From IMG/VR virus record IMGVR_UViG_2534682157_000019: a stretch of DNA of 64,000 nucleotides; one strand, given 5' to 3'. The DNA is from a virus. Its lineage: Duplodnaviria > Heunggongvirae > Uroviricota > Caudoviricetes. The position numbers were made by a program. Positions 54,001 to 60,000 of the stretch are shown in pieces. Numbering within the stretch: the stretch's first letter is position 1; each line of letters starts with the position of its first letter.

Positions 54001-57000
54001 CATATCCTGAAGTAACACATCTATAGCTAACTTCACAGCGAGATCATCCAATTCATCATGGTGAAGCACTCGGATCATTCCCGCAATAGCATCTGCTGAA
54101 ATAGCTTCCCCAGTAGCAATAACCTCAAGCAACGACACCCCTAGAATTTCGACTACCCGCTGGTGCAACACACCAAATTCCCCTTCGATTAACATGCAAT
54201 CACCCATAACAATCAGCCTTTCCCCCTTGAAAATATCACGCGGATACCACAAAAATAAAATATTTTTGTTATCAACCATTTATAACGCTTTCCATAAAAT
54301 GATAAATATAGTTATTGCACAATCAGATAACTTAGGTTATCTTCAATTCAACAGCAGGACGCTGGAAGCCAAACGGAACAGATTGGCAGGCTCTTTAACA
54401 TTGATGGACTCTCAACCTAACCGTTGAGACCAAAATCTAAGTGGTTTTGGGGATGACGCGAATTTCAGTTGCAAGGCCGCGATCGAGAAGAAAAACACCT
54501 CGACGCGTCATACACCAAAGCCACTTAAAGGAGACCATCATGGTAACCATAATCTGGAAAGAATCCAAAGGTACGGCAAAAAGCCGCTATAAAGCTCGCA
54601 GGGAAGAACTTATTGCAGAGCGGCGCAGTAGTGAAAGACTGACGCGGAAGATTGCGCTAAAGATCTCTGGTTGCGTCAGAGCAGACAAAGCAGCATCACT
54701 CGGCAGCCTTCGCAACAAGAAGGCAGAAGAAGTCGAGCGCAAAAACAGAAGTACTTATTACAAGGATTCAAACCCATTAGGAAACAAAATACATGCAGTT
54801 CAAAAATAAAATTGTACAGTAAACCACCGTATGGACTTATTGAGTATGCTTATGGTGAAAAAGACTATTTATGTTAATCCTAATCGCGGACAAAACAGAA
54901 AAGTATCTGATAGAAGCCTTACATCTCGAGACAGAAGGAGGATAGCGAGATGGGAAAAGAGAATAGCATATGCATTAGAAAACGGTATAACACCTGGATT
55001 TAATGCTATAGATGACGGTCCGGAATATAAGATTAATGAAGACCCAATGGACAAAGTTGACAAAGCATTAGCAACACCATTTCCTCGAGATGTTGAAAAA
55101 ATTAAAGATGAAAAATATGAGGATATAATGCACAGAGTTGTTAACCACGCTCACCAACGAAATCCAAATAAAAAATGGTCATAACCCACTTCGGTAGATT
55201 TTATTGTTTGGACTAACAAAATTTACTACCGCAAGCCACGCAGTGAAACGGGTGTGACTTGTGTTGGTCGCCAGAAAATAAAATTAGGCAGCAAACCACT
55301 TATTTGAAGTGAGATATGGAAGAAGAATTTGAAGAGTTCGAAGAGCATCCACAGGATGTGATGGAACAATACCAGGACTATCCGGATGACTACGACTATT
55401 GATACAAATCAATGGTGTGGGCAATACGAACTACGGCCATGATTGCCAGAGAACTTAGCAAACAGAAAAACAAGGCTGCCTGATGGTGGCCTTTATTTTT
55501 GGCATAAACAAATCAGTAAAAAAAGCGAGGTGATTGATGACCACGCCTTCAGTTTTGCCGCAAAAATTATGGCGTCCGCTTGCAGAGATTAAAAACTTCG
55601 TTGAAAAAAAGCCTGACGGCGTTCGCCTTACGGAAGTTACTAAAAAAGTTAAGACATTTGCCGAACTGTCAGGAAAGGAGAGAAACCAGCTCATAGATTT
55701 TATCGATAAACGGGAAAGCATCATTGTATTTAAGGTCAGAAAAGAAGGTTCTGGTAACGGAGTAACCTTTTTCCGCCACAAAAAATATGGATATCCCAAG
55801 CGGGAAGGAAACGTCACAATCATTAAGGACCTTCAATCAAAATTATGTACCAGATGCGGGCAGACAAAATCAGTCGATGATTTTTATTCAGATGCCAGCA
55901 AACGTGACGGGAGAGCCATTTATTGCAAGAAGTGCGAATCTGCAATGAAACGCTCACGCAGAGAATGCAACAAATTAATTCTGCAACAACAGGAACCTGA
56001 AATGAATAACCTAAAAGCAGTTTCACCTTCACCAGAAATACTCAGAAAGCAGGCGGAAGAATTGCTGAAAGCCGCCGAAATTGCGGAGAAAAAACGCCAG
56101 GAAGATGATGTATTCAACAAAAAACTTGCGCCCTTAAAACTTGAAATTCTTCAGGCCGCCGGAAAAATGCAGCTTAAACTGGACGAATTCATCGACTGTA
56201 TGGATGAAATGAATAAAGCTGTTCAGAAGCTTAAAGAACTGACCGCCTGATATTAATAAATTGCAACTACCGGAGTTAACTATGAACGAAACAGAACTGA
56301 AGCACATTATCGCCCTGCTTCTGGAAGATGCCAAACAGGTTTATCGACTTAGCCCAAATTCCGCAACGCTGACACGCATCCAGATGGCAGAAAAAGCACT
56401 GAAACAGGATAATGAAAACAGCGCATCCGAAGTTGATGCTAATGGTGAAAATGAAGTAATAGAAATAAACAGCAATATCAGCGACAGTTGCGTCGCTTAC
56501 AGCCACCAAATAATTCGTGTAAGCGCAAGAATAATGGAAGTGATGGCAAGTGAGCTTGAAAAGAACAACATCAAGCCCACTGATTGTTGTTTAAGAACCG
56601 TAATGAACGTTATTTATTACTCGATGTTCCGAAGTCGCTAACAGCATCGAGTTTTTCATCAAAAAATGATTCAAATGCATCGTAAAATACGGCAATAGCA
56701 CCGCCCTTATCTACCGCGGCAGGAACTGCCTTTTGAGGTATATCTTTCTCCCTGAATTGTGTGTTGTAGGTATCGACAGCCAGCCGCATCAGAAACATCA
56801 CTTTTTCTTCTTGTGTCATAAATTCACTCTCCTTACGGGGTTTGTAGTTGAGGAGTTCTCCACGGGTCAGGTGGAGTTCGTGCGCCGGACACGGGTGAGC
56901 ATCCGGCACTGTCAGTTTACTGAACAGATATTACCCTGAAAAGCCAGGGTGCAACACGAAAGCGCACGGCGAAGACTCTTTCCCTTTGAAGGCTTGTCGT

Positions 57001-60000
57001 TAGATTTCTTCGACCGTGCGCTTCCGGTTGTGAATAACAACATTGCTGTGTGTAGTCATTGGCGGATATCAGTTTAATTGCTGGCTGATATCCGCCCTTT
57101 TTTAAAGTGAATTTTGTGATGCGGTGAATGCGGCTCAGCGCACGCGGAACAGTTAAACCGACAGGATGTCACGGAAAGTCATCGTCCCCTGACCCGGCGT
57201 TAATTGTTAACTGGTTAACGTCACCTGGAGGCACCAGGCACCGCATCAACAAAGTTCATTTGTGAAAATGGAGATAATTATGATTGCTCATCACTTCAGA
57301 ACTGATGAAATACCACGTCAGTGCGTGACACCTGGCGATTATGTTCTTCATGAAGGGCGGACATATATCGCTTCAGCAAACAATATTGAAAAGAGAAAAC
57401 TCTATATTCGTAACTTCACGACAAAAACATGCATTACCGATTGCATGATTAAAGTCTTCCTCGGACGTGATGGTTTACCTGTAAAAGCGGAGTCATGGTG
57501 ATAAATGTAAAAATAAAATGTGCCTACCATCTCTGCAATAAGGAAACCGAACAAACCAAATCCGTTAAAAGTCATCTTCATTTTATGAAAGGCACAATCC
57601 CCGTAACCGAAGAGCGGCAATATTGCAGTAAGCAATGCGCCGAAAATGACCAGATGGCACATGAACTCTAACCCCTCAACTTGATATTCAGACAATTCAG
57701 TTTCATGCCAGATATAACAGCACCATAGGCCTTAAAAAAAGGACATATAAAGTGAAAGAACTTAATCCTGACCAAATCTTTTCTGAAACCGAAAAGACAG
57801 CAGTAAATGAACTTAATGAAATTGCAAACCGCATCAGTAAAATATGCAAAGAATACAAAATCGACTTTGTATTTTCTTTTTCAGTGCTTACAGAAGTTGG
57901 AAATAACGAATATAAAGACAGTCGTTTGGTTTCATGTGGGTTAAATGGCAAAACACCAAGCCCATATATTCATGCCGCATGTGAAGTCGTCAGAAGCAAC
58001 ATTGAAGCACAACAAATCCATGAACTGGCGCTGGCTCTTGAGTTTGCAAGAGAAAATCCTGAGTGCGACTGCCCCGAATGCCAGCACGAAAAGGAAAAAC
58101 AACTAACAAAACAGCAAACCAGGCAACCTTCCACTGAAATAAAAATCCGGCAGCGCAGGCTACCGGATTTCTCCCTGCGTCACCGTATTCGGAGAAATCA
58201 GACAAAGGGCCGCTAATTCTAATCCAGCCAGAGGTTTAAATACAATGAGTGCTGATAAACAGACTTTTGCACTACACTGCGAAGCAAAAAACGATAAAGT
58301 CAGAAAACGCCTTGACATCAAAGGCGGTTTTTTCTGGACCGAGGCCAGAAAACTTTCTGTCGCAGTTTCCCGCTGCATTGCAGCCATGGACGATGCAGGC
58401 TACGACGAGGATGATTTCAAAAAACCCGTTCGCGTAAATTTCCCCGTCGTGAATGACCTTCCACCGGAAGGCGTGTTTGATACTGAATTCTGCAACCGCT
58501 ATGAAAAAGGCGGTAACGATGGCATCACCATGATGGCTATCCCCTTCGATGACAACATCAACGGTGAAGATGCCACAACTGCTGGCGATGACAACGATAA
58601 CCTGGACGGAACTATTCCGGATGATGTGGAGAAAAGCGAATCCCCGGACAGCGACGATGACTGTTCTGAGTGTGAAATTCCCGTCGCCACTCTGAGCCTT
58701 ACTCATCGCTTCCTTCACCTCTTCTTATTCAGCAAAGATGAAGATGGAAAATACCGGCATCATGCCACACCAGAACAACGCAATAACGTGATCCGTATGG
58801 AGATGGACACAGAGGACAGTTACCTTCAGAGCCTGCTTACTGCTGTGCGCGCCGCGCATCATGAACTGGATAAACTGACGAACCATCACCTTAGTCGCCT
58901 AGCTGAATCTGTAGGGAAAGCATTCCCCCACTCTGCAAATCATCGCATCAGCCCGGCTGAATTCGACAAGTTCATCTCCACCTGGATGAAAACAGACTAT
59001 GTGGATCAGGGATTGCTGGCAAAAGAATGGCAGAAAGGAAATTATGTTACAGGCATCACTCGTACGCCTTCCGGTGCTAACGCTGGCGGCGGAAATCTTA
59101 CCGATCGTGGCGAAGGCTTTACCCACAATCAGGCATCACTGGCGCGAGACATTGCCACTGGCGTTCTGGCCCGTTCAATAGATGTGGATATTTATAACCT
59201 GCACCCAGCACACGCAAAACACGTTGAAGAAATCGTGTCAGAGAATAAGCCGCCCTTTTCTGTTTTCCGTGACAAATTCATCGCCATGCCCGGTGGGCTG
59301 GATTATTCCCGCGCCATTGTGGTGGCTTCAGTGAAAGAAGCACCAATCGGCATTGAGGCTATCCCGGCGCGCGTGACTGAATATCTCAACAAAGTGTTGA
59401 CCGAAACCGATCACTCTAACCCGGATCCGGAAATCGTGGAAATCGCCTGCGGTCGCTCATCAGCCCCAATGCCGCAGCGCGGAACAGCAGAAGAGATACA
59501 TGACGATGAAGAAAAGCAGCAAACATCGGACGCAATGTCTAATGAACAGGCAGCGCCTGAATCAGTGGAAGAAATTCCAGTTAAACATAATGCGGACACG
59601 CAATCACTGGAAAATGTCTCATCTGTAGAAACGAAATACCAGGAACTGAGAGCAGAACTCCATGAAGCCAGGAAAAACATTTCGCCCAAAAATCCTGTCG
59701 ATGCAGACAAATTGCTGGCTGCCTCTCGTGGGGAGTTCGTTGAAGGCATCAGCGCCCCAACCGACCCGAAGTGGATTAAGGGGATCCAGGCTCGCGACAC
59801 TGAGGACCAGAATCAGTCCAAAGTGGAACAAATTGCCCCAGAAGCGGGACAAAACAGCCCGGATACGCAACAAAACGGGCCAGAAGAGCAACAGCCAGCC
59901 CCAGTAGCGCAACCGGAGCTGGAAAAAAACTGCCGCGTCTGTGGTCAGACTGGCGGGGGTAACTGCCCTGACTGTAGTGCGGTAATGGGCGATAGCACTT

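Follow-up and report, generated by a model that had tools for sequence, protein, structure and literature searches.

The nun gene of phage HK022 reportedly has a promoter of its own, as is said to have been found by Oberto et al. 1989 and King et al. 2000. The arginine-rich motif (ARM) of the Nun protein binds lambda boxB RNA and Nun arrests RNA polymerase, whereby HK022 lysogens exclude lambda; the C-terminal residues that contact RNA polymerase (H93, R94, N97, H98, H100, R102, K106, K107, and W108) have been probed in a cryo-electron microscopy study (PMC5386594). Two small RNAs are likewise pertinent to the locus described here, namely DicF, the biogenesis of which has been described (PMC5069750), and RprA, a core small RNA under Rcs control whose anti-site I pairs with site I of the csgD mRNA (-119 to -84), as established with compensatory mutations by Mika et al. 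(PMC3465796). In the same study, csgD site Ib was proven by the exchange of CAGC at -90 to -87, and overlapping nucleotides 45-75 of RprA were reported to pair with ydaM (PMC3465796). We analyzed positions 54300-58300 of a 64,000-nucleotide stretch of tailed-phage DNA (IMG/VR record IMGVR_UViG_2534682157_000019; the whole stretch is referred to as the window). With considerable confidence, we read this region as the promoter-proximal early-left (pL) operon of a Shiga toxin (Stx) 1c-converting lambdoid prophage and as a mosaic of separately circulating modules. Its components appear to be of known kinds, a Nun moron in an N-dependent Stx1c prophage with a mosaic early-left operon, and the new lead that it offers is a candidate small RNA with an RprA-type seed.

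The early-left operon is located on the plus strand of the window (cI at 53126-53833; N start at 54540), and cro and cII are encoded on the minus strand. The nearest complete genome is that of Escherichia coli FHI_NMBU_11, which is 99.9% identical across 28.6 kb and in which the element is annotated as an Stx1c prophage whose integrase gene adjoins ynfG; five genomes matched the whole 4 kb at 99.8-99.9% identity. By mapping from this annotated genome, the gene for the stx1c A subunit was placed at 41959-42915 on the minus strand of the window, and the studied region is thus part of an Stx1c-converting phage integrated beside ynfG. The left part of the region contains the following features.

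54390-54429, plus strand: nutL, with boxA GCTCTTTAA at 54390-54398 and a phage-21-type boxB hairpin at 54410-54429
about 52783-52745, minus strand: nutR, phage-21 type
54540-54809, plus strand: gene N, chimeric (phrog_271, E 1.3e-24)
54793-54798 (-35, ATGCAG) and 54815-54820 (-10, TACAGT), plus strand: predicted nun promoter within the N 3' coding sequence
54852-55184, plus strand: nun, homologous to the gene for HK022 Nun, which arrests transcription and excludes lambda (tblastn, phrog_5632)
55185-55206, plus strand: decayed nun terminator, CCCACTTCGGTAGATTTTATTG versus CCCACTTCGGTGGGTTTTTTATTG in mEp235 (alignment)
55218-55307, plus strand: displaced phage-21-type N 3' remnant, 29 codons and a stop, no start codon
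55316-55402, plus strand: acidic open reading frame (ORF) of 28 codons in the N-ral spacer, putatively coding (phrog_16060, E 4.7e-17)
55386-55483, plus strand: ral pseudogene; compared with phage 21 ral, 103 bp are deleted internally and out of frame
55472-55501, plus strand: intact ral terminator, a hairpin found by the terminator scan

The product of the nun gene, for which alternative upstream ATG codons are present at 54831 and 54846, is 92.7% identical to HK022 Nun over 109 amino acids (tblastn) and matches phrog_5632 over the full profile (E 7e-67). Its ARM, SRDRRRIARWEKRIAYAL, does not vary between the window, HK022, mEp235, and PA28; its last 18 residues, MHRVVNHAHQRNPNKKWS, are identical to those of HK022 Nun, and each of the polymerase-contacting residues listed above, from H93 to W108, is present. 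By homology, Nun would be made in the lysogen. When a lambda-like phage superinfects, the ARM of Nun would attach to lambda-type boxB RNA in the early transcripts of that phage, and the C-terminus of Nun (H98, K106, K107, W108) would jam RNA polymerase, so that the incoming phage would be excluded. The HK022-immunity hybrid O276 has the same hexamers as the predicted nun promoter, and there they bear the annotation 'nun gene promoter -35/-10'. Judged from this anatomy, nun appears to be a moron, with promoter, gene, and terminator, the predicted promoter being buried in the 3' coding sequence of N. Since the promoter would lie inside N, nun would have to travel with a piece of that gene; this would explain why, even though HK022 contains no N gene, its nun is immediately preceded by the same alternative stub of the N 3' end.

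Several observations weigh against this interpretation of the locus. The deduced Nun protein differs from that of HK022 at 6-8 positions, all of them outside the key motifs. The spacer of the predicted promoter contains an A-run (54802-54806) and measures 16 nt in the window compared with 17 nt in relatives, and a generic sigma-70 scan of the sequence did not call this promoter. Likewise, the terminator scan did not call the nun terminator at 55185-55206, whose hairpin is mutated. N as read in the window is truncated at residue 89, the order of recombination events proposed below is a reconstruction from extant sequences, and the description of the region as ordinary holds for its architecture and not for each gene, as four of its ORFs carry no functional assignment.

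The 20-mer of the nutL boxB is identical to the stem-loop annotated as phage 21 nutL and occurs a single time in the window; a search of the window for lambda-type boxB sequences found none. A phage-21-type N ARM is accompanied by cognate boxA/boxB nut sites downstream of both pL and pR. With phage-21-type sequences at both nut sites and no lambda boxB found in the window, the carrier should be compatible with its own Nun: the prophage would be immune because its nutL and nutR would be read by its own phage-21-type N ARM.

Alignments with phage 21, PA28, mEp235, and HK022 demonstrate that the N-terminal ~68 codons of N, including the RNA-binding ARM, are of the phage-21 type, and that from ~54745 onward the gene has another, homologous 3' end, that of the ES18/P22-gp24 type; the match of N to Pfam N_peptide is weak (E 0.0018, under the cut-off). 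The alternative C-terminus is homologous to ES18 gp54, which ends in NPLGNKIHAVQRIKLNSKPLI, and to P22-like gp24 antiterminators. It is, as far as sequence comparison can tell, an allele of a real N domain and not a degenerate tail, because it is homologous to these C-termini and is shared with the phage isolate mEp235.

The original phage-21-type 3' end has been retained downstream of nun. The startless fragment at 55218-55307 that the earlier note had matched to the phage 21 N C-terminus is indeed present; it reads KIYYRKPRSETGVTCVGRQKIKLGSKPLI followed by a stop, and 26 of its 29 residues match RIYYSKPRSEMGVTCVGRQKIKLGSKPLI of phage 21. The same remnant follows nun in PA28, FHI_NMBU_11, and mEp235 but is absent from HK022. 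The duplication brackets ~475 bp (~54745-55220), comprising the alternative N 3' end, the predicted nun promoter, and nun. The proposal of a moron acquired by recombination inside a duplicated N 3' end therefore stands for nun and not for the 3.4-kb block to which it had been applied, and between the two N 3' copies, where the earlier note had placed part of its genes of no assigned function, we found one gene only, nun. We propose that a first module (~54745-55220), the nun moron, consisted of an ES18/P22-gp24-type N 3' end carrying the constitutive nun promoter, nun itself, and the now decayed terminator. Its left joint with the phage-21-type N would have formed in the conserved stretch EEVERK.R.YY, and its right joint would have been illegitimate. 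The incoming 3' end would have completed N and pushed the original phage-21 3' end downstream, where it would persist as the dead remnant at 55218-55307. Within 55182-55307, the remnant shares the reading frame of nun, with only the TAA stop of nun in between, which is probably a coincidence. A readthrough fusion of nun with the remnant was considered and rejected, as the remnant is in the nun frame here but not in mEp235.

This N-nun-N' layout is common: it was found in 30 phage records, and the nun segment was covered to at least 80% in 212 of 5426 complete E. coli genomes, many of them from Shiga toxin-producing E. coli (STEC). In the nearest genome, RefSeq names both nun and the N allele 'hypothetical protein', and the hits sampled among the 212 genomes are labelled 'hypothetical protein', 'regulator', or 'transcriptional regulator'. 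A literature search found no paper describing the N-nun-N' layout.

A second, short module (55308 to ~55510) comprises the phage-21-like spacer, a dead ral gene, and the ral terminator. The highly acidic 28-residue peptide pointed out in the earlier note is encoded at 55316-55402; its ORF is also present in phage 21, from which it differs by one synonymous and one non-synonymous change, and carries no coding-sequence annotation in the curated phage 21 record. No intact ORF of about 66 codons was found at ral, and RefSeq contains just a 23-residue 'antirestriction Ral family' fragment at this position. To the right of this module, the region contains the following features.

55537-56250, plus strand: conserved hypothetical protein of 237 residues (phrog_2539; 64 Enterobacterales homologs)
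56282-56641, plus strand: conserved hypothetical protein of 119 residues (phrog_2982, E 7e-77)
56610-56819, minus strand: conserved hypothetical protein of 69 residues (phrog_2605, E 5e-45; annotated in RefSeq)
57040-57103, plus strand: candidate DicF-scaffold small RNA, unannotated, with seed, terminator hairpin, and U-run
57104-57279, plus strand: conserved leader, STnc100-like element (Rfam STnc100, 30.8 bits, below the gathering score)
57280-57501, plus strand: kilR, Rac-type FtsZ inhibitor (NCBIfam NF008465, E 2.5e-46; phrog_294)
57495-57671, plus strand: ydaE, zinc-finger protein (NF041288, E 1e-25; Pfam RPAP2_Rtr1, E 5.5e-8)
57752-58216, plus strand: conserved hypothetical protein, 128 residues in relatives (phrog_2016, E 9e-72)
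58245-60317, plus strand: RecE-family protein of 690 residues, right boundary of the region (Pfam Exonuc_VIII, residues 55-197 only; RefSeq)

The left and right parts of the region circulate in different phages. PA28 and Stx1a phages match positions 54300-55318 only (98.4% identity), and phiSTEC1589-Stx1c matches 55509-58300 only (99.7%), the switch falling on the ribosome-binding site of the gene for the 237-residue protein; 75/02 Stx and POCJ13 likewise share only ~55509-58300, and in these two phages the right module directly follows a different, 933W-like N. Because the left and right parts occur separately in this way, the 3.4 kb is, on the sequence comparisons, not one island but consists of at least three independently circulating modules joined at gene boundaries. 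The third module (~55510-58240), common to phiSTEC1589-Stx1c, 75/02 Stx, and Rac-like prophages, consists of four conserved hypothetical genes, a candidate DicF-type small RNA that would be formed by processing, kilR, and ydaE, and the recE-like gene follows it. A possible third N remnant at ~55510 was rejected, as only ~10 nt are shared there with the phiSTEC1589 N end.

Where the earlier note had counted at least eight small genes of no assigned function, many small ORFs are indeed present, but three of the genes (nun, kilR, and ydaE) can be assigned to named families, and ral has decayed to a pseudogene. The kilR product scored 155.6 bits against NF008465 (cut-off 92) and carries the RefSeq name 'kil'; YdaE scored 89.6 bits against NF041288 (cut-off 35). 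Two further details of that description were borne out, a gene on the opposite strand (the minus-strand ORF at 56610-56819) and Cys-rich motifs, CxxC being present in the 237-residue protein, YdaE, and the 128-residue protein. The 237-residue protein, whose gene is the first after N in phiSTEC1589 and 75/02 Stx, starts with a winged helix and ends with a long helix; its CxxC...CxxC zinc ribbon is optional in the family. The minus-strand ORF for the 69-residue protein is convergent with, and overlaps, the gene for the 119-residue protein, and synonymous and non-synonymous differences were too few for a coding test. The first ~45 residues of the 119-residue protein alone are common to several other PHROG families, which, taken with the codon differences given below, points to a fast-evolving or modular protein. 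The ORFs of 119, 69, and 128 codons occupy positions equivalent to those of rac11, rac10, and racC in Rac-SA53; these assignments, including that of the 128-residue protein as RacC, were rejected, as the proteins are not homologous.

Could the four conserved hypothetical proteins (237, 119, 69, and 128 residues) be undescribed defence or anti-defence factors? Such a role would be compatible with a mosaic operon, and the four genes lie beside N, ral, gam, and recE, a position at which lambdoid phages carry genes of this sort. The zinc ribbon of the 237-residue protein resembles those of Lar-like restriction-alleviation and EndoVII/HNH proteins (phrog_5558, E 9e-10), but this ribbon is missing from about half of the family, and the structure otherwise shows just a generic winged helix and a coiled coil. 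The gene for the 119-residue protein differs from the O104:H4-type copy at 14 non-synonymous and 5 synonymous codons, and expression of the minus-strand ORF in the lysogen is conceivable. Against these points stand the database searches: none of the ten ORFs matched a model of PADLOC-DB v2 at E <=0.01 (Nun has no model there), the 119-residue protein has no PDB, Pfam, or PADLOC match, and Pfam, NCBIfam, and PDB-sequence searches with the 119-, 69-, and 128-residue proteins returned nothing usable. The AlphaFold2 model of the 128-residue protein was poor (predicted local distance difference test score of 44). We consider a defence function of these four proteins unlikely, if still worth keeping in mind. 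The broader suggestion that the region is a defence or anti-defence locus is borne out in so far as nun is a superinfection-exclusion gene and ral, an anti-restriction gene, was once adjacent; it finds no match among the PADLOC models.

The 690-residue RecE-family protein at the right boundary showed no match to a nuclease domain. Its gene is directly followed by a complete gam-bet-exo set (60314-62078), an odd pairing of a Rac-type gene with lambda Red genes.

The 350-bp non-coding stretch upstream of kilR contains the candidate small RNA. Its single-stranded seed includes AUUGCUGUGUGUAGUC (57042-57057) and is followed by a terminator hairpin of 14 bp (57061-57096) and then a U-run; the single-sequence fold has a z-score of -5.6. 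The element is located where DicF would be expected, in the early-left operon and before a division-inhibitor gene, with a rho-independent terminator at its 3' end. It is syntenic with the dicF gene annotated upstream of dicB in phage Tritos, where the conserved leader also runs on to the division-inhibitor gene. The Rfam DicF model (RF00039) matched positions 57047-57097 with 35.6 bits (E 4e-6), below the gathering score of 48, and the covariance score hence does not place the element in the DicF family. Its 5' seed is unlike that of DicF, and three seed types were found on the same scaffold (DicF-type, RprA-type, and 75/02-type). The 16-nt AUUGCUGUGUGUAGUC is identical to approximately nt 60-75 of RprA, which correspond to anti-site Ib. 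Membership in the RprA family was rejected nonetheless, since the match to the Rfam RprA model (RF00034; 33.5 bits, E 0.034-0.52) falls below the gathering score of 70 and the RprA architecture is not present; the element is RprA-like at one seed at most.

Consistent with the identity of the seed, a duplex with the csgD 5' untranslated region at -99 to -82 was predicted at -27.2 kcal/mol (z -4.35; none of 200 shuffled sequences did as well), compared with -26.0 kcal/mol for RprA nt 45-78 at the same site. At the start region of dgcM (ydaM), the predicted values were -19.7 kcal/mol for the window seed and -22.7 kcal/mol for RprA nt 45-78; no pairing to the rpoS leader or to ftsZ was predicted for the candidate. 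Rac-SA53 retains the seed; of three other E. coli prophage copies examined, two have also kept it, and that of NCCP15648 differs at the last three bases. The element was found in 68 of the 5426 genomes and is annotated in none of them, and a literature search found no paper on a prophage small RNA with an RprA seed. We tentatively propose, as a reading somewhat more likely to fail than to hold, that this is an Hfq-type small RNA on a DicF scaffold whose seed has been swapped for the anti-csgD/anti-ydaM seed of RprA, and that it would repress CsgD and DgcM upon prophage derepression. With the same reserve, and as one joint claim, its 5' end would be cut from the pL transcript, curli and biofilm matrix would be lowered without RpoS activation, and the scaffold would represent a seed-exchanging family. 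The element is to be taken as a lead suggested by the sequence and not as a demonstration.

The leader between this element and kilR hardly varies: nearly the same sequence precedes kilR or dicB in Tritos, Rac-SA53, and 75/02 Stx. A leader segment (57104-57294) that includes CACCTGGAGGCACCAGGCACC recurs in phages P7 and D6, in Actinobacillus phage vB_Apl-pPE4, and in Aeromonas phage AP1. Its presence in P1-like phages and in phages of hosts other than E. coli points to a conserved element for cis-regulation or processing.

The earlier note had described N as ending in a diverged C-terminus. The ORF at 54540-54809 does end as described, with 89 residues and the terminal sequence NRSTYYKDSNPLGNKIHAVQK, but this ending depends on a run of five A residues (A5) at 54802-54806, which brings about the stop after AVQK; otherwise, the C-terminus is the ES18/P22-gp24-type domain. 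Six A residues (A6) are present at this site in FHI_NMBU_11, PA28, mEp235, and HK022 (four of the four other sequences aligned there), and four other near-identical genomes match over the same length of 4004 bp. With A6, N has 112 residues and ends in AVQKIKLYSKPPYGLIEYAYGEKDYLC, reaching 54877 in the +1 frame and overlapping the start of nun; N of PA28 and of mEp235, a phage isolate that has been sequenced, continues with AVQKIKLYSK. The comparison of the window with FHI_NMBU_11 over 28.6 kb revealed 20 substitutions and 6 indels, and all 6 indels are 1-nt losses in the window within A/T runs of at least 6. Three of the six introduce frameshifts, in N, in the 57752 ORF, and in the minus-strand ORF at 53986-54279, all of which are uninterrupted in relatives. 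The positions concerned are as follows.

41103, 41939, 54250, 54801, 55517, and 58094: single-base deletions relative to FHI_NMBU_11 in A/T homopolymers
53986-54279, minus strand: conserved ORF between cI and pL/nutL (phrog_3946; 69 residues in RefSeq)

The latter ORF runs opposite to its neighbors and is longer in the window owing to the A-run deletion at 54250. Given this indel pattern, the truncation of N is most likely an artefact, and it and the frameshifts at 54250 and 58094 are probably homopolymer errors of sequencing or assembly in the source of the window.

The alternative is that A5 is genuine. The window sequence does read A5, and the run falls within both the N coding sequence and the spacer of the nun promoter; N would then be short by 23 residues, its presumed RNA-polymerase-binding domain would no longer have the QKIKLxSKP terminus, and the spacer would be shortened. 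The uniform pattern of the indels and the A6 of the relatives speak against this, as does the 57752 ORF, which has 154 codons in the window through the A-run deletion at 58094. Its main clusters have 128-130 residues, and 154-residue forms are seen only in tiny, noisy, and multiply frameshifted clusters. We therefore hold a genuine A5 to be improbable. Its consequences, either an antitermination-defective (cryptic) prophage or an A-run that acts as a slippage switch coupling N function to nun expression, are to be regarded with equal skepticism.

Least probable is the acquisition, in one event inside the duplicated N 3' end, of a single AT-rich island at 54810-58240: the N 3' duplication is genuine and the GC content is indeed low over most of the block (0.35-0.43 over 54650-56750 and 57200-58100, versus 0.48-0.56 in the flanks), as the earlier note had observed, but the position of the second N 3' copy at 55218-55307 means that the duplication encloses nun only, the left and right parts are found in different phages, the junction at ~55510 is a gene boundary also used in phiSTEC1589 and 75/02 Stx, where the gene for the 237-residue protein comes right after a different, 933W-like N, and the kilR-ydaE-recE segment is syntenic with Rac, so that separate modules and not one unit are indicated.

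For a mosaic early-left operon with a nun moron, the significance of the region is mainly one of annotation correction, as its 'hypothetical' genes include a well-understood lambda-exclusion gene. The nun module bears on which lambdoid phages can superinfect Stx lysogens. If the candidate small RNA is what we tentatively propose, it would link the induction of an Stx prophage to the control of biofilm formation through the proven seed of a host RNA against csgD, whose product is the master regulator of curli and biofilm, and it would represent seed swapping on a conserved phage small-RNA scaffold.

The comparison with known systems can be summarized as follows. With HK022, the window shares a Nun protein that is 93% identical, with the ARM and the C-terminal arrest residues unchanged, ~110 bp of upstream sequence with the annotated -35/-10 elements, and a position just downstream of pL. 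Unlike the window, HK022 is without N (it uses put RNA) and possesses only the N 3' stub; in the window, nun belongs to a phage that depends on N and whose nut sites are phage-21-like, and the gene is followed by a decayed terminator and then the displaced phage-21 N 3' end. This arrangement of a phage-21-type N 5' end, alternative 3' end, nun, and phage-21-type 3' remnant is that of mEp235, mEpX1, PA28, phage 06-3462, and Stx1a-converting phages, of which PA28 and the Stx1a phages are 98.4% identical to the window. In PA28, a sieB-like gene, cIII, and a lambda-type kil follow downstream, whereas the window has the dead ral and then a Rac/phiSTEC1589-type block; unlike the mEp235/PA28 group, the window prophage carries stx1c. 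The N-ral region of phage 21 resembles that of the window in nutL, the 5' two-thirds of N, the N 3' remnant, the spacer with the 28-codon ORF, the ends of ral, and the ral terminator (~90% identical), but in the window nun is inserted, ral is internally deleted, and the homology stops at ~55513.

The right part of the region resembles kilR-ydaE-recE of Rac and dicF-dicB of Qin: the division inhibitor is preceded by a conserved leader and by a small RNA that ends in a terminator and, in the window by prediction, is cut out of the early-left transcript, and it is followed by ydaE and recE. It differs in that the seed of the window small RNA is RprA-like and not that of DicF, and in that the flanking genes (119, 69, and 128 residues) are not homologous to rac11, rac10, and racC of Rac-SA53. 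The likeness to RprA is limited to RprA nt 45-78; within it, the 16-nt stretch AUUGCUGUGUGUAGUC is shared, the flanks are similar (GAAUAACAAC in the window and GAAACAACGA in RprA), and the predicted pairing with csgD and dgcM is comparable to that of RprA itself. In contrast to RprA, the window RNA is without the 5' stem-loops, anti-site II, and pairing with the rpoS leader, its hairpin is DicF-like, and it is located in a prophage operon and not at the rprA locus.

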